Shown here one piece after another: positions 5,076 through 64,000 of a DNA stretch of 64,000 nucleotides (position 1 is the stretch's first letter; every line of letters begins with the position of its first letter). Below the pieces are notes generated by a model, which was given only the letters and a program-made list of their open reading frames with translations, was not told the origin of the DNA and made no database searches. The position numbers and the translations under genes were made by a program. This DNA is from Flavobacteriia bacterium (lineage in GTDB: Bacteria > Bacteroidota > Bacteroidia > Flavobacteriales_D > Crocinitomicaceae), in assembly GCA_947458955.1 (NCBI GenBank), contig CANGZT010000001.1, forward strand, positions 32,700 through 96,699. The letters run 5' to 3'.

Positions 5076-5084
5076 ATCTAGGTT

Positions 5085-5381: not shown

Positions 5382-5441
5382 TTTAGTAATTTTTTTAAGT
5401 TTTAAAGACTTTACGTTAACAATTGTAAAATGTTACAAAAG

Positions 5442-25097: not shown

Positions 25098-25131
25098 AAT
25101 AAGGTTGTTCTTAGAGCAACCTTATTTTTTT
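25098..25131 (+). terminator. rho-independent terminator after the aminotransferase
   Basis: AAGGTTG-9 nt-CAACCTT hairpin (25101-25123) plus a T-run. Confidence 0.75.
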
Positions 25132-25140
25132 ATTGATTAT

Positions 25141-26788: not shown

Positions 26789-26808
26789 ATAAATAATAAG
26801 TTTCTAAA

Positions 26809-46977: not shown

Positions 46978-47054
46978 GGCTTCGTAGCTCAACTGAATAG
47001 AGCACTACATTACGGCTGTAGAGGTTTAAGGTTTGAATCCTTACGAGGTCACCA
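46978..47054 (+). tRNA. tRNA-Arg (anticodon ACG), CCA encoded
   Basis: Hand-folded 77-nt cloverleaf. Acceptor GGCTTCG/CGAGGTC, D stem GCTC/GAGC, anticodon stem CTACA/TGTAG with loop TT-ACG-GC, T stem TAAGG/CCTTA, then discriminator A and CCA. Confidence 0.9.
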
Positions 47055-48612
47055 AAGCGGAGAACTGGTTATTTTTAACCAGTTCTTCTTTTTTTACCCC
47101 ATTCAAACTTCCTGATAATGTGTGAATTAAATCAAAAATCACATTCACTTCTGAGGTTTGAACTCGGTCATTTTTCTTGCAATACCACAATCCTCTTGGA
47201 AACAGTAGTTTTAGAAATTTTTGATTCTCGTAGAAACTCATAGACCTCCAGTGTTTACTGATGTTTTTACAGAAATCTAACGCTTTATTTATACAAAATT
47301 CAAGGTTTGAACTCGTGTTTCCATTACTTCCTAAAATTTCATTTAAAGCATCAATTTCTTCTATGTATTGCTTCGAAAATTTAGCGTAAATTTCATTCGA
47401 AATTTCTCCAATTGCATATCGTTCTTCAATTTTATCTAACTTGTTTTTTAACTGCGTTAGATTTGTTTTAATCGTTTTGTAATCTGATTCATCTTCTTTA
47501 GAAACTTCTGAAAAAACATACGACATCACATCTTTAATCACTTCAATCAATACTGGTTTTAATTCATATTGTTTCAATACCTTTTCAAAGTCTTCATGAA
47601 GCTGATTTGCATTTTTAGTACCAATACAGCCATTTGTTCTGCATTTGTAATAATACAAACGCTTTGCCTTTACTTCGAAGCCTGAGAGTGGTTTATTGCA
47701 CTCATTACAAAGAATAAATTGTCTTAAAGGCAGATTTTCATTTTCATTTTTATGCTCTTTAGGATGCATAGTTAGTTCAATTTGATTTAGCCTCAAAAAA
47801 TCTTTTTGAGAAATCAACGGTTTGTGTTTACCTTCATGTGCTTCACCAGGTAAGAGTTTGGTAGTTAAAATCCCACAATAATATGGGTTCTTAAAAACTT
47901 CGCCAAGTCTTCTTTCGTTGATGTTTACCCCTAAACGATTTAGTTTTCGAACAATCTCTGCATTTGAAAATTCATTATTTAAACGCCATTTAAATGCTTT
48001 TTGAAGATGTTTTCCTTCCTCTGTAATTTGAATATCCCAATCGACGGCTTTACTATGAACCTTTTTGTTTTCATATCCTATTGGAGGTGTCCAAAGCCAA
48101 TACCCTTTTCGAACCAAGTCTTTCATTCCAACTTTTGTTTTGTCTCTTCGTTGTTCATTGTCGAATTGACTAAACATATAAAACATACCTTGTTGAAATT
48201 TTCCTGCAGCAGTATCTGTTTCGGTATATTGGGTAACAGCCATAACATTGACTCCAGTTTTTTTCAATGATTCAGTTATATATGCAGCATTTGCACCTGT
48301 TCTTGAAAATCGATCGTAAGAATACACAATAATATAGCCTATACTTTTGTTTTTCTTTACATAAGTAAGCATCTTATTGAATTCTTTTCGATCATCTGTT
48401 TTCGCTGATTCGTGTGTCCCTCCAAAATATTCTACAACATTTAGACCTTTAGATATTGCAAACGATTCACAATACTTTTTTTGTGTTTCTAAACTCGTGT
48501 TATCTTCTTGATTTTTTGACGAGACTCGTGTATAAATTATGGCATTCTTTCTTGTCTCTAATGATTTATCCATTGGAGAAAATTTCTGGAATGCCTCTTG
48601 TAAATTTTTCAT
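47041..48612 (-). CDS. large serine recombinase (integrase of the downstream island)
   Basis: N-terminal resolvase domain with the catalytic Ser (AIIYTRVSSKNQ). Recombinase domain, zinc ribbon (CNECNKPL...YYYKCRTNGC) and coiled-coil tail. The last ~18 codons overlap the tRNA terminator and tRNA 3' end. Confidence 0.9.
   Translation of the reverse strand: MKNLQEAFQKFSPMDKSLETRKNAIIYTRVSSKNQEDNTSLETQKKYCESFAISKGLNVVEYFGGTHESAKTDDRKEFNKMLTYVKKNKSIGYIIVYSYDRFSRTGANAAYITESLKKTGVNVMAVTQYTETDTAAGKFQQGMFYMFSQFDNEQRRDKTKVGMKDLVRKGYWLWTPPIGYENKKVHSKAVDWDIQITEEGKHLQKAFKWRLNNEFSNAEIVRKLNRLGVNINERRLGEVFKNPYYCGILTTKLLPGEAHEGKHKPLISQKDFLRLNQIELTMHPKEHKNENENLPLRQFILCNECNKPLSGFEVKAKRLYYYKCRTNGCIGTKNANQLHEDFEKVLKQYELKPVLIEVIKDVMSYVFSEVSKEDESDYKTIKTNLTQLKNKLDKIEERYAIGEISNEIYAKFSKQYIEEIDALNEILGSNGNTSSNLEFCINKALDFCKNISKHWRSMSFYENQKFLKLLFPRGLWYCKKNDRVQTSEVNVIFDLIHTLSGSLNGVKKEELVKNNQFSALVTS
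47062..47095 (+). terminator. rho-independent terminator of tRNA-Arg
   Basis: GAACTGGTT-ATTTTT-AACCAGTTC hairpin (47062-47085) followed by TTCTTTTTTT. Confidence 0.7.
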
Positions 48613-48616
48613 GTTT

Positions 48617-48763
48617 TTACTTTAATGAATTGTTAATAATGATTCTACAAATTGTTTCTAGGCTTTCAAGTTCAAATGAACCCATTCCAAAACTGTTTAA
48701 TTTTCTCAGTAATTGAGTTTTGATTTCTTTAATTTTTTCCTTTTTCTTGTCAATAGTTTTCAT
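48617..48763 (-). CDS. small hypothetical protein (48 aa) directly upstream of the recombinase
   Basis: Below the track cutoff: MKTIDKKKEKIKEIKTQLLRKLNSFGMGSFELESLETICRIIINNSLK. Its stop lies 4 nt before the recombinase ATG. Confidence 0.25.
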   Translation of the reverse strand: MKTIDKKKEKIKEIKTQLLRKLNSFGMGSFELESLETICRIIINNSLK

Positions 48764-48855
48764 CCTATTCTCGGATGCGTTCACCTTCGTTGTTCGATAG
48801 GTTCACCTTGTTTCACAATTGCTTTGACTTATTCAATAGCGTTAATTATAAATTG

Positions 48856-49794
48856 TTATTTTTTAAATTTTGTTTTGTGTACATTTTCAACAAATACTTG
48901 CTCTTTGCCATTAGCAGTTATTATAATAGTGTTATATCTATTTTTGAATATGTAATCTGAAACTCTTTTTTCTGCGTAAAATTTCTCTTTTTTAGTCGCA
49001 TGCATTATTTTAAGTATTTCTGATTTTTTTTGATCAAAAAATAATTCAATTTTAGTAACACTTGGATCTCTAATCGATTTTAAAATTGTTAATTCATCAT
49101 TTGTTATCATTGACATTTTTTCTTCAGCAATAAATTCAAATGATATACCTTCAAAAAAAACTGAGCTTAATATTTCTGACATCGAAAGATTAAAATAACT
49201 TCCACTTAATAAAACTCTGCTTGGTTCATTAATTTCTATTTGTTCAATATCTCTACCTTCTTTTATAAAGTAAAAATCACCATCTTCATCGATTTTAAAA
49301 GTATATGTTAGTTTATTTATGAACATATCATATATTACCATTTCTAATAAATTAATTTGAACGTGATAATCACTGGGATTGATATTATTTAGTATTTCCA
49401 AAATTTTATCTTCTGATATTTCTGGACTCTTAGTTCTTATAACATCAAGCACACCTTTTTGTAAAAAACTTTCAATATCAACCTTATTAAATTTGTACAG
49501 TAATTTTTCCTTAAATGCTTGGATTATTTTAAACTCGATTCCAAAATCTCTCATCTTTTCAATGCATTTTAACCAAACGCAATCTAAAAATGAGTAGTTG
49601 TTTGTTGATCCTTTTACTATTTCTTTAAAAAGCAATCCTTTGCCTTTCCATTGATTTACAAAACGTGGCTCAATCATCAGATCTTTAGCACTGTATTGAA
49701 TCCTGTTTATTTTCTCTTGAAAATCAGTTATTTCAACTAGCATTTCTTGTGTTTTACTAGTTTCAAAATTTAGTTCTTCACTTTTTTTTATCAT
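48856..49794 (-). CDS. hypothetical protein with MerR-like N-terminal HTH
   Basis: YSAKDLMIEPRFVNQWKGKGLLF...YSFLDCVWLKCIEKMRDFGIEFKII resembles the MerR-type HTH pattern. The start is set at MIKKSEEL (49794). Confidence 0.4.
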   Translation of the reverse strand: MIKKSEELNFETSKTQEMLVEITDFQEKINRIQYSAKDLMIEPRFVNQWKGKGLLFKEIVKGSTNNYSFLDCVWLKCIEKMRDFGIEFKIIQAFKEKLLYKFNKVDIESFLQKGVLDVIRTKSPEISEDKILEILNNINPSDYHVQINLLEMVIYDMFINKLTYTFKIDEDGDFYFIKEGRDIEQIEINEPSRVLLSGSYFNLSMSEILSSVFFEGISFEFIAEEKMSMITNDELTILKSIRDPSVTKIELFFDQKKSEILKIMHATKKEKFYAEKRVSDYIFKNRYNTIIITANGKEQVFVENVHKTKFKK

Positions 49795-49952
49795 GGTCTT
49801 TTTATATTTTCTTTTCACAAAGATATTAAAAGAATTACAAAATAAAAACATTTTTTTAAATTAAACATTTTTAAATTTACAAACCCTCCGTTTTGTTTGG
49901 ATAGTTTTTTTTGGTTTATTGTATATTTACAAACTATTATTCAACTTAAACA

Positions 49953-50174
49953 ATGAAAGAATCAGAACTTAGAGAGAAAATATTCATTCTATCCGAAAAG
50001 TATAACGAAGAAAAAGACTCCATAGAACCTATAAAAAATGAAGAACAAATTGAATATCAAATAATTGATATGATTTTAGATTATATGTTAACCCAAAAAA
50101 TAATAGAATTAAAAGAAATAAAATCTGCTAATAAAATTCAACTAATTAATTTTAATTCGTTAAAAAAACAATGA
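49953..50174 (+). CDS. hypothetical small protein
   Basis: 73-aa ORF rich in Glu/Lys/Ile, with no recognisable motif. Confidence 0.3.
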   Translation: MKESELREKIFILSEKYNEEKDSIEPIKNEEQIEYQIIDMILDYMLTQKIIELKEIKSANKIQLINFNSLKKQ

Positions 50175-50295
50175 AATAGCTGAGATTAATTGGTATTACA
50201 CACAATTATTCTACCCTGGATTTTATGATTCTTTTGAAGAATTTTTAGATATGTGTAAAGTGAGACTATAATTGTAAATTATAGGTTAAAATTTC

Positions 50296-50583
50296 TCAAT
50301 TAATAATGGTGAAACTTCCAAAACTTCCCCTTTTTTTGTTTTTTACAACAAATTTCACAAAATAATTATATCGATTTCCACCAACCAAAATATCAGTAAC
50401 TATAACAGCAGAAGATTCTGTTTTTAGCTTAACATGATTACAAAGGCGATAGACAATCTGACCAAAACAATGTTTATACAATTCATTTGTTTTTTTTTCT
50501 TTGACGACCTTCATATACAGCCTTGAAAAATAACTTTTTTTGAATCTTGTGTATTCTTTATTATTTTTAGAATAAGAGAGCAA
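50296..50583 (-). CDS. hypothetical small basic protein
   Basis: 95 aa from a TTG start (or 72 aa from ATG 50514), with no recognisable motif. Confidence 0.25.
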   Translation of the reverse strand: MLSYSKNNKEYTRFKKSYFSRLYMKVVKEKKTNELYKHCFGQIVYRLCNHVKLKTESSAVIVTDILVGGNRYNYFVKFVVKNKKRGSFGSFTIIN

Positions 50584-50819
50584 GAAATCGTTTCTTGTGA
50601 TTTTTTCTTCGTTTTTATATACTTGTTACTAATACTCGAAAGTATACCTAAAGTAAAAACAAAAAATTAGGATATGATTTCATAGAAGAATTTTTATTTG
50701 TAATTTAATTGATAATAAATGGATAACGACATCAACCCAATTCTTGATACCCTCTTACTAAATATTACTAACTAAGATAGAGAGTTGTTAGTTGTGTTTA
50801 ATTATTAAACAAAAAATTT

Positions 50820-51239
50820 ATGTTACAAGATTATGCAGTAATAATTCAAGGAGCAGCAATAAGAAGCTCAGAATTTACAGAAAATAGAGAGGCTTTGATT
50901 TTAAGACAAAGTCACATTAAGAATAATGGAGAATTAGTTTTTTCAACAGATGAAAACTATATAGAAATAAATGAACAAAATAAACGATATCTCATTCAGG
51001 AAGGTGATATCATAATGGCAACAACTGGTCCCTTAAACATAATTGGCAATATGTTTCAATATAAACTCCCAATGAAGGCAATTGTTGCTGGTCCTTTAAT
51101 CATAATAAGACCTAACGAAAATCCTGAAGGACTTTACAATCGGTTGAAAGATAAATATTATCATATTAAAACAATGGTATCCCCAATTGCAGGTATGACT
51201 AGAATTACTATTAGACAAATACGAGAATTGGAGTTATAA
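50820..51239 (+). CDS. orphan type I restriction S-subunit (HsdS) target-recognition-domain-like protein
   Basis: 139 aa. LIQEGDIIMATTG...AGPLIIIRPNENPEGLYNRLKDKYYHIKTMVSPIAGMTRITIRQIRELEL follows the single-TRD pattern of HsdS proteins. No hsdM or hsdR is in the window. Confidence 0.45.
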   Translation: MLQDYAVIIQGAAIRSSEFTENREALILRQSHIKNNGELVFSTDENYIEINEQNKRYLIQEGDIIMATTGPLNIIGNMFQYKLPMKAIVAGPLIIIRPNENPEGLYNRLKDKYYHIKTMVSPIAGMTRITIRQIRELEL

Positions 51240-51304
51240 AGAAATACCTATAATAATCAACAACAAACAAAATTTTGAAAAAGTTATAATTAATATTTTT
51301 TTAT

Positions 51305-51820
51305 ATGAAATTCAATAATATAGAACTGATCCTAAAAAAGTCATCTTATGAATTTGAGGTGAATGATCCTGTTTACCAAAAATCAGAATGTATATTTTGT
51401 AGTGAAAACTCAAGTTTTGGTGGGTACTCTTTTGCTTATGCTGGATTAATATATAAAATGTTAGTACCTGTAGTTCAATTTCAAAACGAAAAGCCTGTAT
51501 ATCCACTAAGAAAAATATTATCGTTAGATAATCTTAGTAAACCTATTCAAATATGTACACCTGTAATAAAAAACAACAGAGTAGAAGCTAAAACACTAAT
51601 GAACGAAATACTTGATGTAAGTAGAAAAAATAGGTTTTGTAAAATTGTTTTTACCCATTTCATCAAAATCAACCAATCCCATCATAAACTAAATATGCTG
51701 GGGATTCTAGATGCTTTAAAAGAAAATAATTTGAACTCAGAATTAAGCATTGTTCTTTCAATTGATGAAAATCATATTGAAGCATTTGAGGCAATTCTTA
51801 ATGAATATAACAACGCTTAA
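51305..51820 (+). CDS. hypothetical protein
   Basis: 171-aa ORF lying 65 nt after the HsdS-like gene. No motif recognised. Confidence 0.45.
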   Translation: MKFNNIELILKKSSYEFEVNDPVYQKSECIFCSENSSFGGYSFAYAGLIYKMLVPVVQFQNEKPVYPLRKILSLDNLSKPIQICTPVIKNNRVEAKTLMNEILDVSRKNRFCKIVFTHFIKINQSHHKLNMLGILDALKENNLNSELSIVLSIDENHIEAFEAILNEYNNA

Positions 51821-51934
51821 GTTTTTTTTAACTTTGATTAGATATATATGCGATTATAGTCTAAGCGATCATAAAGACTACGCGCGCGTTTATGAAATAT
51901 GTTACTAAATCAAAAATTATTTCAGATAAATAAA

Positions 51935-51977
51935 AGAGGCTGTCTCAAATATTAGAATAACAGCCTCTCAATTTTTA
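51935..51977 (-). terminator. hairpin terminator downstream of the STAND/263-aa gene pair
   Basis: AGAGGCTGT-16 nt-ACAGCCTCT. On the minus strand it is followed by TTTTATTTAT. Confidence 0.55.
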
Positions 51978-52072
51978 CCTAGGGGTGGGAATTTAAACCT
52001 TCATCGGATTACGCCAGATGACCTACGACCAGTTTTAAATTAGGAATCACTGGTTTCCTATGTATAAATAAA

Positions 52073-52864
52073 TTAGACCAACTCAAAATTTTGATTTTCA
52101 TCAAAGGGAAAAAAACCGCCATCTCGATCTATCAACATGATACTATTTGTGTACTCATTATCTAATAAAAATTGCTTTACTGTTTCTACAAAAAAGGGTA
52201 ATGCTCTATTATCATGATCATTATTTTCCATCAAAGTAAACCCCATACTTAATTTGTTTATACCATGAGTACCTAGCATTTTTTTCAATAGTTTAAAACT
52301 ATAATTTACCCTCTGTTGTACAAAGTTATTAATGTCGATCTCTCCATCATAGTTATTATTTATAAAGAGAAGATACGAGGTTTTATTCGTTTCATTTTCA
52401 ATTATTTTATATAAGTTATCAAATTGAATATTATCATTAAATCTAATATTATTAAAAATATTTTCATCACAAACTATCCAGTTATTTTGTGAGAAAGTAT
52501 AAGTTCTAAAATTATCGTTTTCAAAAAATAAATTTCGGCTTTGGTTCTTGAAGACTATAGTGGCATCAACAATAAAAAAGTACTTGCTTAAATTATCTTT
52601 TTTACGATGAATGTATTTAGAGGAATTGTCAACAAATGATATTCCTGAAGAATTTAAGACATTTTGTTTTCCTTCGATATCTAAATTACTGAATGCTTCA
52701 ATTTCATAATTATTAAATATATAAATTGCTAATGTTTCATGTATTCTTAGATTATCTAGATTTTCACGAATAACATTTAATCTATAACTAGGATTGTTAA
52801 TGGAATCTGGATTTAATGTAAACTCACGTAAATAACTATTTAATATATTATTATTAATTTCCAT
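52073..52864 (-). CDS. hypothetical 263-aa protein, putative partner/effector of the upstream STAND NTPase
   Basis: Clean ORF on the same strand, 96 nt downstream of the 1750-aa gene. Asn/Ile/Phe-rich with no recognisable catalytic motif. Confidence 0.6.
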   Translation of the reverse strand: MEINNNILNSYLREFTLNPDSINNPSYRLNVIRENLDNLRIHETLAIYIFNNYEIEAFSNLDIEGKQNVLNSSGISFVDNSSKYIHRKKDNLSKYFFIVDATIVFKNQSRNLFFENDNFRTYTFSQNNWIVCDENIFNNIRFNDNIQFDNLYKIIENETNKTSYLLFINNNYDGEIDINNFVQQRVNYSFKLLKKMLGTHGINKLSMGFTLMENNDHDNRALPFFVETVKQFLLDNEYTNSIMLIDRDGGFFPFDENQNFELV

Positions 52865-52960
52865 CTCTATATTTATTTTAATTACATAATCAAATCGAAG
52901 TTACAAAATAAATCAATTTTAAAAGCTAACTAGACACAACATTATCAGTAATTTATTATT

Positions 52961-55900
52961 CTAATTCAATCTATTATAAATATCAATCGCCCATTGTATT
53001 TCTAAGGATTTGTTTAAGCGATGGATTTGTTCTTCAGATATATCCGTTAAAAATATTCTCCAAATAGCATATTTTTTGAGTAGTTTTTCAATATTATCAC
53101 TATCATGAACGATGTGTTTAAGACAATCTTGAATAAAAACTTGGTCGACTTTGATTATATTTTTTTCCTCAATAAGTGTCTTTAAGAAAATTTCACGAAT
53201 TTCTTCGTGTTGGAATTGTGACATGATTTGTAAGAAAAATTGCGAGCTTGATTCCTTCATAAGTTGACTAGCAATAATTTCCCATACTTTTCGTCTTTCC
53301 CATAACTCAGAAATGGATAGACCGGCCTTTTCTGTTAAATGATATTTTTTTTGATTGAAAAGTTCCAAAGCAATTTGATGAAGCGTACTGTTTTTAGTAC
53401 TATCAAAATGAATATTTTGCACACATTTTAATGCTTCTTCAAACATACCTTGTTTTGTCATTTCAATGGATATTACCTCAAGTACGTAATTTTTATAGTT
53501 CCAATCAGAGATGTCATTTGAACATTCAATTGCTTTTGATGTATTGCCCTGTTTAGCCATTTTTAAGGAAATGATTTTCAAAAAATAATCTTTTTTTAAC
53601 TGATTATTTAAGTGTTTTGCAAAATACAATGCTTCTTCATACTTTCCATTTTCTACCTCCTCAAACAAAAAGTATGTATGTAAATCATTTTTTATTGTCA
53701 AATCCTCTATAGTTGCGGAAATTTGAAATGCTTCTTCAACCTTATTTTGTTTGAAAATCTCTCCAAAAAGTCTATTTATATTTATAGGAGAAAAATAATC
53801 ACAATAATCATTTAATTCTTTGGCAAATAAAAAGGCTTCTTTAATCATTGATAGGTTGATAATTTGTGGAAATATTTCTTCTATATCGGATAATTTAAAT
53901 ACTATTTCCTCTTCATCGATCCAACCTTTATTCTTTTGAATTCTAATAAACACCATCACGTAAGACAGAATGTCTTGCATCATTTTTTTAGCTTTTATTA
54001 TTTGACCTTGAGTTATGAGCTCAGATATAATGTCTTTCCATTTCTCAAAATAAAAATCAAAATTATAATTGTTAAAATCTTTTTGTATTAACATAAGAGC
54101 ATCATCTAATATAGAGGATGACTCTGCAAACTTACTCTGTAAAAATAAGGCATGGGAAATATCTTTTAAATCTAAACATCTCGAAAATGCATTAGCTAAC
54201 TCGCGCGCCTCATTCAGTATTGGATCAACATCTTCTATGAAACCTTGTTCTGTTAATTGATTTACCACAGAAAGCATGGTTCTACTAGAGTTTATCTTAC
54301 GTGCGTATTGTAATGTATATTTAAGTATTGTACGTGAATCAATAATCGTATGCGGAGATGATTCAAACATACCTAATTCTATTTCAAACTCTTTTATAAT
54401 ATGTCCCTGCATAGCCATTTTTGAAGAGATTTCTAATAATGTTCTTGTTTTACTATCTTCTAATTGAAAAAACTCTTCATTTCCGTCTTTCATAATTCCT
54501 ACTAATTGAATAGCAGCCTCAAACAAATTTTGTTTTAGTAATTCAAAACAGATTTTTTCTAAATCATTGTTATCTAGCTTATCACTAATTAAGTTAACAC
54601 ATTGTAAAGCTGCTTGTAATCTGTTTTGATTAACGAATTCCATTAAAATGTCTGCAAATGATGGGGGAAACCAATTATAATATTCGCATCTAAATTCACT
54701 AATTGTATCTAATACTGCTTCTAGATTTCCTTGTTTTGAAAATTCAATGCAAATTTTAGAAAGAACATTATTTGCATATTTTATTTCTTTTGATAATTTA
54801 AATGCTTCATTCAATTTCCCTTCATTGGCAAGTTTAATGGAGATATCGGTAAGTAAATTTTCTCTTTTTTCATTTATAGTATCTCTTACTGAAATAATCG
54901 ATTCATTCATCAAATCGATAATATCCTGCCATTTGGATTGAAACGATAATTCTGAACAAATCGCTTGAATTACTTCGCTCTTCCAATCATTATTCGAAAT
55001 GTTCAAACTCAATTCAAGCGCTTTCTGCATTGTTTGCTCTGCTTCGTCCAATAAGTTAACGATATATAATTCAGAGGAAATAGCAGCTAGTCTTATAGCC
55101 TTTTCACCATCATCTGTTGTATCGTTTGCTATAGCGAATGCTTCATCAATCTGACCATGTTTTACTAATTGCTTTACTAATTTCATGGTGATTATATAAT
55201 TAAAGTTAGTCCCTGTTCTAACCATAGTAATAGACTCAACCCATTCTCTAGCAATATCAAGCTTTCCTTTTTTTTCAAGTGCTGGAATAAAATCGTCGAA
55301 ACAATACCATGAAGTATTATCACCTCTATCATCAATTATACTAAAATTTAACACTTCAATCATATGAACCTTAGCCATTTCCAGTCTATCTTGTTCAATA
55401 AGGGCTAAAGTTTTTAATATTTCTACATCATATTGTTCATTATATCCTGTGTATTTCTCAAGTTCACTTATAGCATGATCTATTGAGATTAAAATTTCAG
55501 AATCTCTTTCTGCATTTACTTTATTTTCTTCTGTAGTCAAATGAAGTAATGATTCTATTTTATATACGATATCTCCGACACCTAAAATAAATTTATACAC
55601 ATCAAACCCTTTACCTAAATAAACCATTTGTGAATATATTTTTTTTAACAATTCTTTATATTCCTCTTTCCAGTAGGGAAAGGGTATTTCATTGTAAACT
55701 TCACCTAAAACATCTTTCAAAGACCAAAATCTATCGTAATCATCATCATCATAAACATCAAAATTATTTTCTTGATGTTTCTTAGAAAGTTCATTATCTA
55801 AGAGTTTATAAATAATATTCAATGCTTCATGTAAAAGAGAGATAGCTTCAGAAGTTCGCCCTTGTTTAGAAAATTCTGACGCAACAAATTCTAAAATATA

Positions 55901-58213
55901 ACTTTTACTATATAATTCATTAATTGTACTTGCAAAATCAAGTGCTTCATCTATTTTACCATGTTTTGCGTATTCAATACCTAATTCTCCAAATGCTATG
56001 TTTTTTTGCCATTCATCACTAATTCTTTTGGCACTAGCATAAGCTTCATTTAGTATGTTTAATTTTTCTATATCCACTTTTTGTGTATCAATATTTCTTA
56101 TGATAGTAATTAACGCATAAAAAATATCAAAGTCGTTGTTTAATGTTCGAGCAATTTCAAGAGCTTCTTCGATTCTTCCGTGACATCCTATTGAAGTAAA
56201 TATACCTGTTATAGAGTCTCTTTTTATTCCAAAATCATTGATTTTCTTTGCGATAGTAAGTCCTTCGTGAATAAACGCTAAAGCTTTTTCTTCCTTACCC
56301 TGTTTACCAAGTTCTGTGGATATGTCCGTCAGCGCGATACATATATCAGATTCTTTTTTTAAATTTCTAGCATGTTCAAGCGCTACATCAAGCTTGTTTT
56401 GTTTGATTAACTGCTTTATTACAAAGTTTTTACTGCAAATGTTTTCTAATACTTTTAGTTCACTATCCGAAAATGGAGCTTCTCTTTCTAGACATATCTC
56501 TATTTCTTGTTCATTGAAGTAACTGAAGTAACCTCTTTTTAAAACAATTTTATAATCTAAATCTAAAGCAACCCATTGTCCTGCCATTTTGAAAACTAGG
56601 TTTATCGGAAAAAAGTCACTCCAATTCAAAAGTTTATAATTCATTGGGAGATGCTCATCTAAATGATTCAGTAGTTTTTCAAGGGCTTCTTTTTGGAAAG
56701 GTTTATTTTTACTATCCAAAAGTGTTAATTCCATCAGGCACGGCATGTAGAGTTTAAACTTACGTTTCAACCCTTCCTCATCATTATTCGCAAAACTTTC
56801 TATTCGTTTCAGGGCTAAATCTATCTCATTGTCAGTAACTAAAGTCAACACGAATGGTGCTTCAGCTGTTTCTTCACTTTTTAATTCTACCAAATTAAGT
56901 GCTGATTCCAACTGTAAATGGTAATCATTTAGTTCTAAAGATTTTTCCAAACTTAGCTGGTAAAGATTTTTCGTTGCATCAAAATGCCTTAATACTTTCT
57001 TTTGTGTATCTGTATAATCCTTATTTTGAAAAAGTGAAAACAAGTCTGTTTGGTGCACTTTTTGACTGCTTACGCTTAGATGTCGTCCATAATTTTCTAA
57101 AGCGTATCGCTGTTCCCATTCACCCATTTGATTTTTCCAAGTGGAACAAAAATGAATAATCTGCGTATTTGCTTCATCTAAGTTAGCAGATTCCCATTTC
57201 ACCAAATATTCTCTTAAACTTTCATGGAATAATTGATATCCTATCACACCCTCATCAAGGATACTTTCGTAACAAAACTCTTTTATAAGAACGTTAAGAT
57301 GTTTTAGTGTTTCATCATCAAGATTATTAATCAGACCTAGATGTCTAAGAGTCAAAAAATCGTATGCTGCAGCCAATAAATACATACACCTTAAAAGATC
57401 TTCACCATGTATATTTTTAGCATATCGTTGCAGAATGGATTTGTAATAATCATTTAGTTCAATGGGTAATACATTACTTTCATTGACTTTAATGAATCCT
57501 TTATCAATTGAATCACACATTAATTTTAAATACAATGGATTTCCTTGAGAGGCGTTTACAACTTTTCGAAACCAACTGTCTTCAACTTTCAGATTATATC
57601 TTTGGGCTACTTCATCAAGTATTTCCTGAATGTTATTTTCTGTTAAACCACCTAACTCAATTTTTACAAAATTTTCTCTTGGCAAAGATGCCCAGAGTTC
57701 TTCAATTTGTGTATCGCTACCAGGTCGCGAACTAAAAATAAAAATTATATTATCAAATAGTTGACGAGGAAGGTAACTAACTAAATTGTTTTCTGTCCCT
57801 TCATCCAAACCATCGATGAATATCAATAGTTTTTTATCTTTATTTTGCTCGCTCCATATCCGCCACTTGGAAAACAATTGTTGTTGTATATTTAGAATAG
57901 TTTTACCCTCAGACTTAATTTCCCTGGCTTGAGGAAAAAGATCATCCGTTTTTTTAATTAAATCATTCAAAAAATATTCAATCTGAGCTTGGGCTGTTCC
58001 GCGACGAATCCATGACGCAATTATCTCGGTATTTATCAGCTCATTTTCCAATCGTATATCTTTAATAAATTCAGCGACAAGTGAAGATTTACCTATACCT
58101 GGATGACCAAAAATGCAGAAATATCCATTTTTGTTTTTTTTTACATAATCTAGAAATTGTGTACGTTCTATTTGTCTACCTATAAATCTATGTGAGTTTT
58201 GTTTTTGTGTCAT
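52961..58213 (-). CDS. NACHT-type STAND P-loop NTPase with >1000-aa C-terminal helical-repeat array
   Basis: Walker A GHPGIGKS (aa 36-43), Walker B LLIFIDGLDE (aa 129-138), FIFSSRP (aa 158-164) and GNPLYL (aa 224-229). At least 14 copies of an (I/L)xxE(L/F)xKQGxxxEA-type helical repeat follow. Confidence 0.85.
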   Translation of the reverse strand: MTQKQNSHRFIGRQIERTQFLDYVKKNKNGYFCIFGHPGIGKSSLVAEFIKDIRLENELINTEIIASWIRRGTAQAQIEYFLNDLIKKTDDLFPQAREIKSEGKTILNIQQQLFSKWRIWSEQNKDKKLLIFIDGLDEGTENNLVSYLPRQLFDNIIFIFSSRPGSDTQIEELWASLPRENFVKIELGGLTENNIQEILDEVAQRYNLKVEDSWFRKVVNASQGNPLYLKLMCDSIDKGFIKVNESNVLPIELNDYYKSILQRYAKNIHGEDLLRCMYLLAAAYDFLTLRHLGLINNLDDETLKHLNVLIKEFCYESILDEGVIGYQLFHESLREYLVKWESANLDEANTQIIHFCSTWKNQMGEWEQRYALENYGRHLSVSSQKVHQTDLFSLFQNKDYTDTQKKVLRHFDATKNLYQLSLEKSLELNDYHLQLESALNLVELKSEETAEAPFVLTLVTDNEIDLALKRIESFANNDEEGLKRKFKLYMPCLMELTLLDSKNKPFQKEALEKLLNHLDEHLPMNYKLLNWSDFFPINLVFKMAGQWVALDLDYKIVLKRGYFSYFNEQEIEICLEREAPFSDSELKVLENICSKNFVIKQLIKQNKLDVALEHARNLKKESDICIALTDISTELGKQGKEEKALAFIHEGLTIAKKINDFGIKRDSITGIFTSIGCHGRIEEALEIARTLNNDFDIFYALITIIRNIDTQKVDIEKLNILNEAYASAKRISDEWQKNIAFGELGIEYAKHGKIDEALDFASTINELYSKSYILEFVASEFSKQGRTSEAISLLHEALNIIYKLLDNELSKKHQENNFDVYDDDDYDRFWSLKDVLGEVYNEIPFPYWKEEYKELLKKIYSQMVYLGKGFDVYKFILGVGDIVYKIESLLHLTTEENKVNAERDSEILISIDHAISELEKYTGYNEQYDVEILKTLALIEQDRLEMAKVHMIEVLNFSIIDDRGDNTSWYCFDDFIPALEKKGKLDIAREWVESITMVRTGTNFNYIITMKLVKQLVKHGQIDEAFAIANDTTDDGEKAIRLAAISSELYIVNLLDEAEQTMQKALELSLNISNNDWKSEVIQAICSELSFQSKWQDIIDLMNESIISVRDTINEKRENLLTDISIKLANEGKLNEAFKLSKEIKYANNVLSKICIEFSKQGNLEAVLDTISEFRCEYYNWFPPSFADILMEFVNQNRLQAALQCVNLISDKLDNNDLEKICFELLKQNLFEAAIQLVGIMKDGNEEFFQLEDSKTRTLLEISSKMAMQGHIIKEFEIELGMFESSPHTIIDSRTILKYTLQYARKINSSRTMLSVVNQLTEQGFIEDVDPILNEARELANAFSRCLDLKDISHALFLQSKFAESSSILDDALMLIQKDFNNYNFDFYFEKWKDIISELITQGQIIKAKKMMQDILSYVMVFIRIQKNKGWIDEEEIVFKLSDIEEIFPQIINLSMIKEAFLFAKELNDYCDYFSPININRLFGEIFKQNKVEEAFQISATIEDLTIKNDLHTYFLFEEVENGKYEEALYFAKHLNNQLKKDYFLKIISLKMAKQGNTSKAIECSNDISDWNYKNYVLEVISIEMTKQGMFEEALKCVQNIHFDSTKNSTLHQIALELFNQKKYHLTEKAGLSISELWERRKVWEIIASQLMKESSSQFFLQIMSQFQHEEIREIFLKTLIEEKNIIKVDQVFIQDCLKHIVHDSDNIEKLLKKYAIWRIFLTDISEEQIHRLNKSLEIQWAIDIYNRLN

Positions 58214-58450
58214 AAAAATCTATTTTAAATAGTATATATTGTGTAACTTCCTTTTTTTTAGTGAGTTGTAACAAATATATAAAGTTTATAAATATACTTT
58301 AATTACGCTTTATTTTTTAATGCGTAACAAACTATTATTGAAAGATAAAAACTGTTTATTAATAAATCAAACGGATTTTAAAAAAGGTATGTATAAAATA
58401 TCAAAACAATTATTAGAAATCAATTTAATAAAACAAAGAAAAGTAATGCA

Positions 58451-59329
58451 GGAGCAAAGCCATTTGATGTTGTCATGATGTTCAAAATATTGATTTTACA
58501 ACGTTATTATGGTCTTGGAGACTCACAATTAGAGTATCAAATAATTGATAGAGCAAGTTTTAAAAAATTTCTTGGTTTGGAAAGCGGTTATAAAGTGCCA
58601 GATGAAAAAACAGTTTGGTCTTTTAGAGAACGAGTTACAAAAAGAAGGGTAGATTGAGAAAATATTCAAACAGTTCAATGCTTATCTTGAAGGTAAAGGT
58701 TTAATAATGAATAAAGGTAAAATGATTGATGCAAGTTTTACAATTGCCCCACGTCAACGTAATACCCATGATGAAAACAAAACAATAAAAGAAAATAAGG
58801 GGGTGAACTTTGGAATCATAAACCAAACAAAAAGAATCAAATAGATGTAGATGCTCGCTGGACGAAAAAAAATGGAGAAACCTTTTATGGACATAAAAAC
58901 CATACAAAAGTAGATGCAAAGTTCAAATTCATTGATAAATATAAGGTTACAGATGCTTCAGTACATAACTCTCAAGTATTAAATGATTTAATTGAAGAAA
59001 AAGACCAAGGACAAGATTTATATGCTGACAGTGCTTATCCTGGAGAAAAGCAAAAGAAAATCATATCATCATACAAAATGAATAATAAAATCCACGAAAA
59101 AGGATATAGGAACAAACCATTAACAGACCAACAAAAACAAAGTAATAACGAAAAGTCAAAAACCAGAGCTCGTGTTGAGCATGTGTTTGGATTTAATGAA
59201 CAAAGTATGAAAGGGTTGTTGGTGAGGTCTGTCGGTAAAGCAAGAGCAACAGGAATTATAGGACTTATAAATCTTACTTACAATATGTTAAGATATGAAC
59301 AAATCATAAGATTACCGCCTCAAAATTAA
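58451..59329 (+). pseudogene. decayed IS5-family DDE transposase
   Basis: Homology starts mid-protein (GAKPFDVVMMFKILILQRYYGL). A frame change and an in-frame TAG lie near 58635-58650, and a second frameshift sits at the G-run near 58797-58803. The DDE residues are still recognisable (MIDASF, LYADSAY, RARVEHVFG). Confidence 0.8.
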
Positions 59330-59516
59330 TAAACAACAATGAAAAATCATATATGTAATTATATGTTAGTTAGTTAGTCTTCAAAATTAAATTGAGAAAC
59401 AAAAGAAAAATAGTATATCTTTGGAATGATTTGAAAGTTTAGTTAAAGAGTTCTGCGAAATTTTCAAATTAAAAAAAAGAGAAAAAATGAATTTTCAGAA
59501 CTCACCTTAAAAACAA

Positions 59517-60101
59517 ATGATGAAACTAAATGAATATTTAAAAAATCATTTTCCTAATGATTTAGCAAGGTTAAAATTTCAAAAACCTAACTCTGTTATC
59601 CAAGATACCCTTGATTCTTTTAATATTGATCAACATACGATTTATTTTGGTGGTTTGAATTGGGAGAACTTAGACCAAGACATTGAACATATTGATAAAG
59701 AGTGTTACGAACATTTCTTTTTTTGTTTATTTACGATAACAATTATTGACTTAACTATATTTTCCCATTTTAAACATTATTACGATATTTTCAGAGGTAA
59801 AACAAGGTATCCTAAATTTGGGTGGAGTGGTTACGGTCCTCATTATGAAAACCCAAAAAAATTAATCGATATCCCTTTTCAAAAAGGACTAATTAGAATA
59901 GATGAAATTTACATAGATGAATATGTTCAATTATTTATTTCAGAAACTAATTCTTTTCTTGAATCAAATCTCAATCAAATTACAACTGTAGATTTTTTCA
60001 ATTCTCTACTAACAGACAGAGATTTTCAGTTAAATGAAAATGAAGAAAACACATATACACCACTCATAATAAAAAAATTAAAAGAAAAGTTCGAAAATTA
60101 G
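59517..60101 (+). CDS. hypothetical protein
   Basis: 194-aa ORF upstream of mcrB with no recognisable motif. Confidence 0.45.
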   Translation: MMKLNEYLKNHFPNDLARLKFQKPNSVIQDTLDSFNIDQHTIYFGGLNWENLDQDIEHIDKECYEHFFFCLFTITIIDLTIFSHFKHYYDIFRGKTRYPKFGWSGYGPHYENPKKLIDIPFQKGLIRIDEIYIDEYVQLFISETNSFLESNLNQITTVDFFNSLLTDRDFQLNENEENTYTPLIIKKLKEKFEN

Positions 60102-60240
60102 CCAAAAGTTCAAACAAACCCACATCGCAATACCAAGTGTAATTATGCATAGAGTCCTTACTTGGTAGATAAGAGTAAAGGAGTTTATTAACTAATGATT
60201 TAGCAATAAGGCTAAAAAAAACAATTATAATAAAAATAAT

Positions 60241-61614
60241 ATGCCAAACATTACACAATTTATACAAGTAGCTAATCAACAAACACCTGGCCAAAATACA
60301 ACACCGTCGGCTTTAGCATACAAAAGAGAAAATGAAATACCTTTTGAAAATCTAAATGTTAAAATTTCTTTTGGAATAGGTAGCGCAACCTATATTCCTT
60401 GGATAGCATATCTAGGCTATAATCAATCTGTACAAAGGGGGATTTACCCTGTTTTGCTTTTCTATAGAGAATTTAATTTATTAATCTTAGCCTTTGGTGT
60501 TTCTGAAAAATATGAGCCATTAATAAATTGGCAAGACCCAGAAAATTATTTAACAATAAGTAACTATTTTGAACAAAACCAACTTGGGAAACCAAGAAAA
60601 TATGGGAATTCTTTTATACACACCGTGTACGATACTAATCAACCAATTGATGAAACATTAATACAACAACAAATAATAGACTTAACAACATTTTATTATG
60701 CTTGTTTTAATCCTACACCTAATGATCAAGGAGAAATTGTTCCTGTTTATGACTTTGATACTGACCCAGACAAACCATTTATAACTCGAGAAGTCTTCAT
60801 TAAGACAACAAACCTATTAAAACGAAAAAGAAATATTATTCTTCAAGGTCCTCCAGGTGTTGGTAAAACATTTATAGCACGTAAAATTGCTTATCAGATT
60901 ATGGGACAATCTGCTGATGCATTTATAGAAATGATACAATTTCACCAATCATACAGCTATGAAGATTTTATTCAGGGATTAAGACCAACAGTTGATGGGT
61001 TCAAAATAATTCCAGGTGTATTCTTCAGATTTTGTCAAAAAGCGATTGCTCATCCAGACAAAAAGTTCTTCTTCATTATTGACGAGATAAATCGAGGCAA
61101 TTTAAGCAAAATATTTGGCGAACTTTTAATGTTAATTGAAGCAGACAAAAGAGGAGGAAAATACTCAATTAACCTTACCTATTCCGAATTTGATGATGAT
61201 AAATTTTTCGTCCCTGACAATCTCTTTATTATTGGAACAATGAATACTGCTGACAGGTCACTAGCAATCGTTGATTATGCCTTAAGAAGGCGCTTTGCTT
61301 TTGTGTCTCTACAGCCTGACTACGGTGATAATTTCAGAAACTTCCTTATAGGAAATCAACTTTCACAAATAATGGTAAACCATATCTGTTCTTCCGTTAC
61401 CGAAGTGAATAATATTATCAATGAGGATATTAATTTAGGAAGTGGGTTTCAAATCGGTCATAGTTATTTTTGTAATAGCCCAAATACGATTACTGAAGAA
61501 ATCTGGTGGCGAGAAATTCTAGAGTTTGAAATAAAACCATTACTATCAGAAATTTGGTTTGATGATGCAAATAAAGTATCGGATATGATGCAAATATTAG
61601 CCTATCCAGATTAA
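60241..61614 (+). CDS. mcrB: McrB-family AAA+ GTPase restriction subunit with MrcB_N/DUF3578-like N-terminal DNA-reader domain
   Basis: Walker A LQGPPGVGKTF, FFIIDEINRGNLSKIFGELLMLIE and GTMNTADRS...ALRRRF. The N-terminus ISFGIGSATYIPWIAYL...GIYPVLLFY resembles the MrcB N-terminal domain. Confidence 0.85.
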   Translation: MPNITQFIQVANQQTPGQNTTPSALAYKRENEIPFENLNVKISFGIGSATYIPWIAYLGYNQSVQRGIYPVLLFYREFNLLILAFGVSEKYEPLINWQDPENYLTISNYFEQNQLGKPRKYGNSFIHTVYDTNQPIDETLIQQQIIDLTTFYYACFNPTPNDQGEIVPVYDFDTDPDKPFITREVFIKTTNLLKRKRNIILQGPPGVGKTFIARKIAYQIMGQSADAFIEMIQFHQSYSYEDFIQGLRPTVDGFKIIPGVFFRFCQKAIAHPDKKFFFIIDEINRGNLSKIFGELLMLIEADKRGGKYSINLTYSEFDDDKFFVPDNLFIIGTMNTADRSLAIVDYALRRRFAFVSLQPDYGDNFRNFLIGNQLSQIMVNHICSSVTEVNNIINEDINLGSGFQIGHSYFCNSPNTITEEIWWREILEFEIKPLLSEIWFDDANKVSDMMQILAYPD

Positions 61615-61616
61615 CG

Positions 61617-62663
61617 ATGAGAATTCCCATTCTAAATATCTATCACTTATTATGCTATGCATGGAAAACACTTGATGAAAAGGAACGAATTAGGGTTGAA
61701 ATTGATGATACTACGGAATTAGTTGACCTTTTTGCAAAGGTTTTAATAAGAGCAACAAAAGTACTTATTAAAAGAGGAATTGATAAAAGTTACATTGAAC
61801 ATAATGAAGAAATTGCAGGAGTAAAAGGAAAACTATTAATAAGTGAAACTGTAAAGAGTAATATTTTATTTAAACAGCGAACTATATGCAATTTTGATGA
61901 TTTTTCACCCAATATTTTAAGCAATCAGATACTATTAACAACTATTTATAACTTAATTAGAACACAAGGAATTGATAAAGAATTAAAAGATGAATTAGAT
62001 TCACTTCATAAAATGTTTATAGGGATTGATCTAATTGAAATTAAGAGTTCCCTATTTAAGCAAATTCGAATTAATAGAAACAATCGGTTCTATGGTTTTG
62101 TGATGAATGTTTGCCAATTAGTATTTGAAAGTACATTACCATCCGAGGAAAAGGGAAAATATTTGTTCTCAGATTTTACTAGAGATGAAAAGAAAATGCC
62201 TATACTTTTCGAAACATTTGTCAGAAATTTCTATAAAATTGAGCAACATATATTCTCAAGCGTCAAAAGAGATAATATTAAGTGGTATTTCGAAATTTCG
62301 GACACATTAAGTGACCAATACTTACCAAAAATGCAAACAGATATTACTTTAGAAAATTCAAATAATAAAATAATAATAGACACAAAATATTCTCAAAAAA
62401 CAATGACTATCAACTACAATATGGAAAAAATAAAATCAAGTCATTTGTATCAAATGTTCAGCTACTTATTAAATCAAGAAAATGAAACTGAAAAGACAAG
62501 AACAACTACAGGAATTTTACTTTATCCAACAATAGAACAAGACTATGATTTGAACTTTAGGTATAATGAACATGACATTAAAATCAAAACAATTAATTTG
62601 AATACTGAATGGCAAAATATACATAATAGACTATTGTCAATTATAGGTATCAATCAAACTTAA
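61617..62663 (+). CDS. mcrC: McrC-family restriction endonuclease subunit
   Basis: Starts 3 nt after mcrB. Its C-terminal PD-(D/E)xK-like core is MQTDITLE...IIIDTKYSQK. Confidence 0.8.
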   Translation: MRIPILNIYHLLCYAWKTLDEKERIRVEIDDTTELVDLFAKVLIRATKVLIKRGIDKSYIEHNEEIAGVKGKLLISETVKSNILFKQRTICNFDDFSPNILSNQILLTTIYNLIRTQGIDKELKDELDSLHKMFIGIDLIEIKSSLFKQIRINRNNRFYGFVMNVCQLVFESTLPSEEKGKYLFSDFTRDEKKMPILFETFVRNFYKIEQHIFSSVKRDNIKWYFEISDTLSDQYLPKMQTDITLENSNNKIIIDTKYSQKTMTINYNMEKIKSSHLYQMFSYLLNQENETEKTRTTTGILLYPTIEQDYDLNFRYNEHDIKIKTINLNTEWQNIHNRLLSIIGINQT

Positions 62664-62740
62664 ACACTCTAAATAACAATTATATAATAATATAATTAAC
62701 AACTTTTTTAGTATATTTAATAAGTTTAAAAAAGTACCCT

Positions 62741-63625
62741 ATGTTCTTAAAATACAAACATCCCAAAATTGATGATCATTCTTTATATTATTTAAAGACT
62801 GATAATTATCAAACAACGCCTGTAGACTTAACTTCTTTTATTCTTGATAGAATTGATAAAAACAAAGATATTAGTGAGTTTATAAAGAATTTTGAAACAT
62901 TAGGTATAGAGAATGATATACCAAGTTATTTTCAAAATTACATGAGTATTGCAGATGTTGAGTTAACCTCAAGAGTTTTAGCGCCAATTGCCAATCAGAT
63001 TGAAACTTATATTAAAGGTTGTAAGAATTTTGATTTAGAAAGTTTTAATAATGCATTAATCGCATCTATTAATGAACTAAAAGAAGATGAAATAGTTGAA
63101 GCTTTATTTGCAAACCGATTAATTTGGAACTATTTAAATGATAAAAATAAGTTAGAAAGTAAATTAAAGTCTTTCAAATATATAGATTCAATTAATCCTA
63201 AGGAGATAGATAAATTAAAATCTATTGCAATTCACTTTTTTTTGAAAACGAGTGATTTTAATCTGCAAGAGTTGAATTCTTTCAAGTTAAATACAAAACC
63301 TAATGTAGTATTTTATCATAACGATGATAATAAAATTTATCTTGAAATTGATCATGAATCAAAAACCGTTTGGTTTGATAAAGAAACATCAGATTGGATA
63401 AATAGAACAAATACGGTCACATTTGATGGATCATGTGACTTTGATACCCTTATACATTTATACTTTTTATTATCTGAGACAGTTTTAAGTGGTAGTAATA
63501 AAGAATATAATATGAAAGTAAGGTCTTTCAAACCAATTTGGTTTAGAGCAATGGGTTACACTGTAAAACCATCTGGCGAATATGCAAAAACCTATTGGAA
63601 AATAATTGAACAACAAATCAATTAA
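62741..63625 (+). CDS. hypothetical protein
   Basis: 294-aa ORF lying 77 nt after mcrC with no recognisable motif. Confidence 0.5.
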   Translation: MFLKYKHPKIDDHSLYYLKTDNYQTTPVDLTSFILDRIDKNKDISEFIKNFETLGIENDIPSYFQNYMSIADVELTSRVLAPIANQIETYIKGCKNFDLESFNNALIASINELKEDEIVEALFANRLIWNYLNDKNKLESKLKSFKYIDSINPKEIDKLKSIAIHFFLKTSDFNLQELNSFKLNTKPNVVFYHNDDNKIYLEIDHESKTVWFDKETSDWINRTNTVTFDGSCDFDTLIHLYFLLSETVLSGSNKEYNMKVRSFKPIWFRAMGYTVKPSGEYAKTYWKIIEQQIN

Positions 63626-63628
63626 ATT

Positions 63629-64000
63629 ATGAAAGAAGTTGTAATTGGACTACAAGTTTGGTCAAATAAAGATTTAGATACTGAATGTTTCGCTAATGGA
63701 GATCAAATACCTCAAGTTTTTTCTTCTCAAGAATGGATTGAAGCAAATGATAAAAAACAACCTGCTTGGTGCTATTATGAATTTAATGAAGATAACGGGA
63801 AGTTATACAATTCATATGCAATAAATGATGAGCGTGGACTACCACCTAAGGGTTGGAGGATACCAACCGTATCGGACTTAGAACAATTACTTAAGACGAT
63901 TAATAATGGTAGTTCGAATGAATACGTAATCTTATCTGAAAATAAAAGTTATTGGGATTTTGGATATGATTATAGTGGCCCAGATTTTTGGGGTTGGGAT
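63629..64000 (+). CDS. FISUMP (Fibrobacter succinogenes major paralogous) domain protein, partial
   Basis: IGLQVWSNKDLDTECFANGDQI...PAWCYYEFNEDNGKLYNSYAINDERGLPPKGWRIPTVSDLEQL matches the remembered TIGR02145 pattern. It runs off the window end. Confidence 0.6.
   Translation, partial: MKEVVIGLQVWSNKDLDTECFANGDQIPQVFSSQEWIEANDKKQPAWCYYEFNEDNGKLYNSYAINDERGLPPKGWRIPTVSDLEQLLKTINNGSSNEYVILSENKSYWDFGYDYSGPDFWGWD

Follow-up and report, generated by a model that had tools for sequence, protein, structure and literature searches.

A defence-gene cargo element at tRNA-Arg in freshwater Crocinitomicaceae, probably integrated by a large serine recombinase

Introduction

The 64,000 nucleotides analysed here (the window; C1:32700-96699) belong to G000, a metagenome-assembled genome (MAG) of a freshwater member of the Crocinitomicaceae (Bacteroidota) that comprises 114 contigs, is 60% complete and has an overall GC content of 31.6%. 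A first-pass annotation of the window had described the DNA to the right of its tRNA-Arg gene as an accessory island with its right boundary outside the window. Our analysis upholds both statements and makes it highly probable that the right-hand 17 kb are the left part of a single 24,806-bp cargo element, integrated at tRNA-Arg by a large serine recombinase (LSR). The element is one discrete unit, not merely a diffuse hotspot. As an island it is ordinary in kind; what sets it apart is its LSR, of a type widespread in Bacteroidota, which is directed at the 3′ ends of tRNA genes and crosses its own attachment (att) site. For the genus survey, 15 other species were compared with G000 by DNA searches, and the metagenome evidence consists of contigs and unitigs assembled from lake or freshwater runs. 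Coordinates refer to the window; beyond 64000 they are window-equivalent, with C1 joined to C21.

Element boundaries and the tRNA-Arg target

The integration target is tRNA-Arg(ACG) (46978-47054, plus strand), the sole tRNA found in the window by ARAGORN, and it remains intact post-integration. Genes for ClpS, an ABC-F ATPase and an FKBP isomerase lie just to its left. In an alignment with G002, G004 and G007 the body of the tRNA is identical throughout, and homology stops exactly at its end (...GGTCAC). The last bases of tRNA-Arg contain the 8-bp core of the left attachment site, attL (GAGGTCAC, 47045-47052). C1 extends 7.5 kb beyond the window and its end overlaps that of the reverse-complemented C21 by an exact 129 bp; on C21 a second copy of the core (20340-20347; window-equivalent 71851-71858) forms attR and bounds the element on the right. 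Together, the overlap and the positions of attL and attR give the complete element its length of 24,806 bp, flanked by the 8-bp direct repeat GAGGTCAC. The copy at attR is the distal repeat that extending the contig had been expected to reveal.

The reading of attR, ...TTGATT GAGGTCAC TAGAAAGCGAGAATGTAAGTTCTCGC... (that is, ...TTGATT-GAGGTCAC-TAGAAAGCGAGAATGTAAGTTCTCGCTTTTTTT), contains the tRNA body's last 8 nt, after which comes the native terminator hairpin that in G004 stands directly 3′ of tRNA-Arg. GAGGTCAC is the only block of identity common to attL and attR, and nowhere in the G000 assembly are the tRNA 3′ end or the terminator repeated directly over a greater length. When attB is rebuilt from both flanks it equals the real G004 site bar one single-nucleotide polymorphism. 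To the right of attR, on C21, genes for 191-aa, 380-aa, vWA-like (210-aa) and RmuC proteins follow in the order of G004 with 93-99% amino acid identity, and in G004 the same four genes directly follow tRNA-Arg, which makes that locus the empty site. The P arm of the G000 element was located only through this synteny with G004. The genes cphA, cphB and priA, which form the right flank in other species, were not found in the 60%-complete G000 assembly, and blastn and tblastn searches of G000 with the 'X' arm and tail found in other species (described below) returned nothing significant.

Two details of the flanks deserve mention. The 380-aa flank gene of G004 seems to be split or N-terminally shortened in G000 (window-equivalent 72795-73817, on C21), where the tblastn match falls into two pieces and the longest open reading frame (ORF) is 340 aa. 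At attL (47050-47054), the first base of the element and the last two encoded bases of the tRNA produce an encoded ...GGTCA-CCA, while the empty site (in G004, and at attR in G000) and relic copies in other species read ...GGTCAC-TA(G/A)A and so encode no CCA. It is because CCA is encoded at attL that ARAGORN gives a length of 77 nt here, compared with 75 nt in the relatives.

Crossover very probably took place inside the 8-bp core GAGGTCAC; tRNA-Arg is left intact, with the element supplying a new terminator hairpin, and the native terminator and chromosomal flank are shifted 24.8 kb rightward.

Presence, absence and polymorphism within the population

The 16,946 bp to the right of the tRNA have no match in the closest species, G004 and G003. 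In the rest of the genus, matches are confined to the recombinase end, to one insertion sequence (IS) fragment and to 560 bp of G002 that comprise the HsdS-like gene and the beginning of the 171-aa gene (both described below); the recombinase-end matches all start at query base 1. The 16,946 bp to the left of the tRNA, used as a control, were found in 16/16 genus genomes and are syntenic at 80-88% nucleotide identity in G004, G003 and G002. The presence/absence polymorphism that an alignment to relatives had been proposed to uncover is therefore there, the region not being conserved in all relatives.

The same polymorphism is seen within the population. Three metagenome runs, from lakes or fresh water, contain the attL junction, with 0.90-0.96 of the sampled words present. 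In X1 the unitigs break exactly at 47052/47054; those of the core side, the tRNA and the island side have depths of 30.8, 38.4 and 18.2, respectively. A flank contig of X1 and X3, showing 0-1 mismatch in 2008 nt (99.95% identical) and a depth of 32.6 (X1) and 17.8 (X3), passes through the terminator and core into GTAAGGATTCAAACCTTAAA, the complement of the tRNA T-arm, and so represents an intact attB; in X1 a separate, shallower unitig links the flank to the island and spans attR. The empty site coexists with the island in the same lake population. With an island of variable presence and an intact empty site, both in G004 and in its own population, G000 has what is expected of a mobile island. 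The same island, with the same gene order and including the IS wreck, recurs in at least six independent assemblies.

One low-depth contig of X3 (L054 2853, on the C21 side of attR) joins a variant P arm, TGATGGAGGTCAC, to the recombinase end TAAAGCGGAGAACTGGT. This junction is either the circular or tandem attP of a sister element, or a P arm beside an old recombinase relic.

The locus is variable beyond this element. G002, G004 and G007 each carry different genes behind the same clpS-tRNA-Arg, and the tRNA-Arg site appears to be a genus-wide hotspot. Behind the tRNA-Arg of G007 (L017 2193-8105) lies a different defence-like set, which we labelled only by reading the translations: an HNH-like 356-aa protein, a NUDIX protein, a helicase of 974 aa whose N-terminal region resembles a nuclease, and a protein similar to DUF2130.

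The integration module and its recombinase family

The LSR (523 aa; 47041-48612, minus strand) combines the Pfam families Resolvase (PF00239; 2.3e-28, residues 24-171), with the catalytic motif YTRVSS, and Recombinase (PF07508; 5e-7, 30.4 bits against a cutoff of 21.1). A match to Zn_ribbon_recom (PF13408; 6.6e-4) reaches 20.4 bits and falls under the 25.3 cutoff. The nearest NCBIfam models are XisF (3e-25) and, second, CcrB (1.4e-20). The last four codons and the stop of the gene lie inside tRNA-Arg, and its integration leaves the short identical core of 8 bp and no long direct repeat. A 48-aa ORF (48617-48763, minus strand), whose stop lies 4 nt before the recombinase ATG, matches no family and is kept in frame in G010 despite indels and substitutions; it is a candidate small regulator or directionality factor. 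In an operon with the recombinase stands the gene of a MerR-like helix-turn-helix (HTH) protein (312-331 aa; 48856-49794 or to 49851, minus strand), which scores 21.3 bits against a cutoff of 21.6 with Pfam MerR_1 (3e-4) and has a homologue at the same place in G010:C45.

This module recurs in the genus in various states of preservation. Behind tRNA-Arg, G010 carries the full LSR and MerR-like module at 87% identity and G013 a 5′-truncated recombinase copy at 96% nucleotide identity, the clpS genes being only 72% identical; in G009 and G015 remnants of 105-287 nt remain, the recombinase 3′-end relics measuring 131-190 nt. Further 3′-end relics, of 57-160 nt, lie in G010:C4 (L031 3528-3727), G015:C37 (L032 2839-3097) and G011:C8 (L033 ~4137-4285). 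There they are preceded not by the tRNA but by a common 'X' arm ending G(T)GGTCAC, and the G010 relic is followed by cphA (cyanophycin synthetase), which is also a right-flank gene in G013. The X-arm relics are probably P arms of later elements lying against older relics, which would amount to tandem accretion at the tRNA-Arg hotspot.

Outside the genus, homologues of the LSR (33-48% identity) occur in Crocinitomix, Fluviicola, Saccharicrinis, Prolixibacteraceae, Cytophagales, Dysgonomonas and Prevotella. A convergent tRNA stands beside the gene at all 15 full-length genome loci that have downstream sequence, at distances from an 11-nt overlap to 170 nt, and the tRNAs concerned are Arg (ACG, CCG and TCT), Gln, Met, Leu and Ser. 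One more full-length locus (Carboxylicivirga) has no tRNA in the stretch examined, and the convergent arrangement is repeated at 7/11 metagenome loci. Overall, a tRNA 3′ end adjoins the gene in 22 of the 29 loci checked. Insertion sites in tRNA genes are reported to be used overwhelmingly by tyrosine integrases (PMC10484663). We found no description of a tRNA-targeting LSR family in Bacteroidota in the literature, which is absence of evidence only.

In L077 (809-3904) an LSR homologue of 553 aa (44% identity) lacks a neighbouring tRNA; directly after it comes a 437-aa gene that, by reading of its translation only, resembles a Bacteroidota tyrosine integrase. The locus may hold two integration modules in tandem.

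The recombinase reading frame at the attachment site

When the ends of the element are joined in silico, the P arm meets CAAAGCGGAGAAC... to give the attP form, and the LSR ORF grows from 523 to 541 aa, with the added tail IKKSSNLLQSDINNFLNY. Read in the same frame, the X arms of the other species provide the tails NVEKSNFYKDLNSILDIEF..., EVEKSNFYKDLNTLIDNEF... and KIEKSNFYKGLNRLI... (our own reading of the sequences). In the attP form the ORF thus runs for 18-33 further codons into the element's other end, and integration swaps this tail for one residue and a stop from the tRNA. The 44%-identical LSR homologue that has no adjacent tRNA ends ...RVTSSGESANFLVEDLELVL..., and a motif, (K/E)-S-x-N-(F/L)..D-(L/I)..L, is common to the G000 attP reconstruction, the three attP-type relics and this homologue. 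That the motif is shared suggests a real coding tail that is lost on integration. It is conceivable, if on balance doubtful, that, with the LSR gene reading across its own attachment site, the C-terminus of the protein reports the state of the DNA, free or integrated.

Cargo genes and their modules

Pfam, NCBIfam and PADLOC agree with the names first given to the serine recombinase, HsdS-like, STAND, IS5 and McrBC genes. The cargo is built of modules. In order, the element consists of the LSR/48-aa/MerR-like module; the HsdS-like and 171-aa pair; the STAND and 263-aa pair; a dead IS5; an E. coli-type McrBC; a 294-aa gene heading a Fib_succ_major/DUF4116 operon; a putative AbiE toxin-antitoxin pair; and a right-end zinc-ribbon gene.

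Next to the integration module lie a 73-aa orphan ORF (49953-50174, plus strand) without a family match, which is called as a gene in the independent assembly L060, and a doubtful 95-aa gene (50296-50583, minus strand), in place of which L060 calls a 72-aa gene. They are followed by an HsdS-like protein of 139 aa with a single target-recognition domain (50820-51239, plus strand; PADLOC Specificity_I 2.2e-10, Pfam Methylase_S 5e-4), conserved in G002, L055/L056 and L071. The 171-aa orphan (51305-51820, plus strand; seven homologues at 49-98% identity) stands after this HsdS-like gene in every context with a visible upstream gene.

The largest gene of the element encodes a STAND NTPase of 1750 aa (52961-58213, minus strand; Pfam NPHP3_N 1.6e-7 and TPR_30 1.3e-9, PADLOC STAND_TPR 4.9e-7). 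Only NPHP3_N and TPR_30 pass their thresholds, AAA_16, nSTAND1 and NACHT all remaining below cutoff. The NTPase domain begins at residue 3-16 and is followed by some 1400 aa of TPR-like repeats; the protein therefore has no N-terminal effector domain. The tripartite build of Avs proteins (effector, STAND, sensor repeats) is accordingly absent, and PADLOC reports no Avs model. Downstream of the STAND gene lies the 263-aa orphan (52073-52864, minus strand), with 12 homologues at 56-94% identity. In L057-L059 it likewise accompanies a STAND gene, there of 1749 aa, at ~75% nucleotide identity, and it is a candidate separate effector or partner of the NTPase. An AlphaFold2 model of the 263-aa protein (13 sequences) had a mean predicted local distance difference test score (pLDDT) of 58 and a predicted template modelling score (pTM) of 0.47, too poor for use.

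A decayed IS5-family transposase (58320-59329, plus strand) survives as several frame fragments, with DDE_Tnp_1 (1.7e-8) on the last (59078-59329), DUF772 on an earlier one in L060 and a 72% match to G015. Beyond it, the 194-aa orphan (59517-60101, plus strand) has 31 homologues, of which those at 47-70% identity, in the three more distant contexts examined, stand in unrelated neighbourhoods without McrBC; the ORF is, to judge from these neighbourhoods, a free-standing gene and not an McrBC accessory. McrB (60241-61614, plus strand) is an AAA+ GTPase with an N-terminal DNA-reader domain (PF07728 5e-23; MrcB_N 4.9e-6) and matches the NCBIfam E. coli-type model at 7.6e-122 and 407 bits over its full length, below the equivalog cutoff of 637. 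It stands beside the nuclease subunit McrC (61617-62663, plus strand; PF10117 6.9e-35), whose NCBIfam score of 348.6 bits is over the equivalog cutoff of 338, and the adjacent pair qualifies as a McrBC type IV restriction system.

The 294-aa orphan (62741-63625, plus strand) is the first gene of the Fib_succ_major/DUF4116 operon, to which we assign it because L055 keeps the trio of 294-aa, 718-aa and 404-aa genes at 95.6% identity without McrBC, homology beginning at 62684, just past the McrC stop. In G000 the operon continues with a 720-aa protein of Fib_succ_major and eight DUF4116 domains (63629 to window-equivalent 65791, plus strand), which runs past the end of the window, and then, by Pfam, with a 403-aa DUF4116 protein and a 581-aa Fib_succ_major/DUF4116 protein. 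An AbiEi-like gene (window-equivalent 69170-69895) matches DUF6088 at 32.7 bits and not the canonical AbiEi model; it is overlapped by AbiEii (window-equivalent 69880-70872; PF08843, 94.9 bits). The right end, before attR, is formed by a small 72-aa ORF (minus strand) and the 191-aa zinc-ribbon protein (window-equivalent 71172-71747, minus strand), which has a weak PHROGs HNH-endonuclease match (8e-6).

McrBC, AbiEii with its partner and the STAND NTPase are clustered within 19 kb, and such a grouping of two or more recognised anti-phage systems is what characterises a defence island. The six orphans first singled out (of 73, 95, 171, 263, 194 and 294 aa) exist as ORFs, and searches with them gave no Pfam, PADLOC, PHROGs or NCBIfam family. 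Not all of them are part of the defence systems beside them: the 171-aa gene goes with the HsdS-like gene and the 263-aa gene with STAND, but the 194-aa gene is free-standing and the 294-aa gene goes with the Fib_succ_major operon. As for the larger intergenic gaps noted in the island, they are mostly the 1.3-kb IS wreck, and coding density from summed ORF lengths is ~88%.

Weighing the alternatives

Several observations count against a single LSR-integrated element. In L055, DNA matching 50506-53219 at 91% and 62684-67152 at 95.6% encloses 4.7 kb of other genes where G000 has the main part of STAND, the IS, the 194-aa gene and McrBC, and the STAND gene persists as a 260-bp 3′-end relic; this cargo (139-aa and 171-aa genes, Fib_succ_major/DUF4116) has no LSR in the 20 kb examined. 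A G002-like species carries the 139-aa and 171-aa genes and the Fib_succ_major/DUF4116 genes behind the same tRNA, with no LSR there. Homology breaks at 50506, inside the 95-aa ORF, and at ~50810. The island does not have the deviant composition of a genomic island, the MAG is only 60% complete, and the metagenome contigs showed neither a circular nor an attP junction of precisely this variant. From the cargo without LSR in the G002-like species and L055 it follows that the element is a mosaic, whose cargo and LSR module have separate histories.

Some of these data also speak for a static, hypervariable tRNA-Arg hotspot with piecemeal gain of genes, in which only the 3.5-kb LSR module (47053 to ~50500) would be mobile. 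G002 and L071 both carry the cargo genes behind the same tRNA without an LSR, the L055 backbone is 91-96% identical with no LSR in view, there are the breakpoints at 50506 and 50810, and the cargo at tRNA-Arg differs in G002, G004 and G007. We nevertheless regard this explanation as improbable. In G000, 24.8 kb separate the tRNA from the P-type arm and core, which adjoin the native terminator directly, and the population's other allele is missing the entire 24.8 kb in one piece and presents a perfect attB. Moreover, there is no second copy of the core and no P arm near 50.5 kb, where the end of a 3.5-kb module would lie, and the P arm carries the coding sequence for the conserved tail motif of the LSR.

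A prophage, phage satellite, or integrative conjugative or mobilisable element is a good deal less probable still. The tRNA target, an integrase at one end, the MerR-like regulator and the HNH-like match of the right-end 191-aa protein would all suit such an element, but its coding length is mostly given to defence and repeat proteins. Pfam found no capsid, terminase, portal, tail, replication, relaxase or type IV secretion families among the island ORFs, and a PHROGs search of ten orphan and small ORFs likewise gave no hallmark gene of a phage or of an integrative conjugative or mobilisable element, nor any match except the weak HNH-like one. An assembly or binning artefact, with a foreign contig part chimerically joined at the conserved tRNA, would fit a fragmented MAG and the branching of De Bruijn graphs at the tRNA, but can be set aside given the attL junction in three runs, the island unitigs that abut the tRNA at 47054, the X1 unitig across attR, the exact C1/C21 overlap, the gene order repeated in independent assemblies, and GC and tetranucleotide usage that fit the genome.

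With regard to composition, the island has a GC content of 28.6% as opposed to 31.0 +/- 1.4% in equal-sized background windows (7th percentile), and its tetranucleotide distance is no outlier, 12.5% of background windows being further away (87.5th percentile). We rejected composition as an island marker. The impression that the island is more AT-rich was right in direction, but the shift is weak and marks no island, because other parts of the window are as AT-rich. The island is marked by its presence/absence and its att sites, not by composition.

Two such AT-rich stretches lie in the part of the window regarded as housekeeping or elsewhere outside the island. A polysaccharide cluster at 25105-28305 (24-25% GC), in the 'housekeeping' part, encodes a glycosyltransferase of family 2, an FkbM methyltransferase and a flippase-like protein. 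Within the window, AT content is highest at 4725-7005 (23% GC), where an HTH_19 regulator, an ORF of 92 aa and a protein of 371 aa without a Pfam family are encoded; this stretch may be another small variable patch.

Relation to known systems and significance

We propose that the LSR-integrated element behaves as a cargo cassette comparable to the staphylococcal cassette chromosome (SCC, SCCmec), which is integrated by the Ccr LSRs at the 3′ end of rlmH (orfX) and likewise has no transfer or phage genes; no phage structural, conjugation or mobilisation genes were detected in the element of G000. Both use the extreme 3′ end of a housekeeping gene that is kept functional, a short core repeat and mosaic, swappable cargo, and CcrB provides the second-best NCBIfam model of the island LSR. 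They differ in target (a tRNA gene rather than a protein gene), in recombinase (one LSR rather than the CcrA/CcrB pair), in host (Bacteroidota) and in cargo (predicted anti-phage genes rather than drug resistance), and the island LSR ORF crosses the att site. The tRNA islands of tyrosine recombinases (P4-like; NBU-type in Bacteroides) likewise occupy a tRNA 3′ end with the integrase gene beside it, are polymorphic in presence and absence, and cluster restriction, abortive-infection and STAND genes. Unlike them, the island has a serine integrase and a repeat of 8 bp in place of tens of bp.

The recombinase itself resembles those of phiC31, Bxb1, A118 and SPbeta (SprA) and XisF of Anabaena fdxN in its architecture of Resolvase, Recombinase, sub-cutoff zinc-ribbon and putative coiled-coil, in its short crossover core and in having attP and attB that are only partly alike, XisF being its best NCBIfam match. 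Whereas those enzymes target protein-coding or intergenic sites, the island gene, like that of 22 of the 29 relatives checked, abuts a tRNA, and its attP, unlike that of phage serine integrases, lies inside the 3′ end of the LSR gene itself. The 1750-aa protein is like Avs and other STAND proteins in joining a P-loop STAND NTPase to a very long TPR-like array. In contrast to Avs it gives no strong PADLOC Avs match and, with no effector domain at its N-terminus, has a conserved separate 263-aa partner in the effector's place. It seems reasonable to suppose that the LSR is still active and that STAND, McrBC and AbiE protect against phage, and that the element can pass from cell to cell.

The element is a textbook cassette of defence genes, fully delimited and polymorphic within a lake population. 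It provides exact attL, attR, attB and attP for a tRNA-targeting serine integrase in Bacteroidota, a phylum with few integration tools. The orphan genes are now sorted into testable units (STAND with the 263-aa protein, the HsdS-like protein with the 171-aa protein, and the 294-aa protein with Fib_succ_major/DUF4116), and the 194-aa and 294-aa ORFs are taken out of the McrBC system. In this genus one integration module is common to different species at 87-96% identity while the cargo swaps module by module. If the tail of the LSR tunes the activity or direction of the enzyme, the tRNA-targeting serine integrases of this family would possess a built-in, cofactor-free switch between 'free' and 'integrated', one that would be widespread in Bacteroidota.

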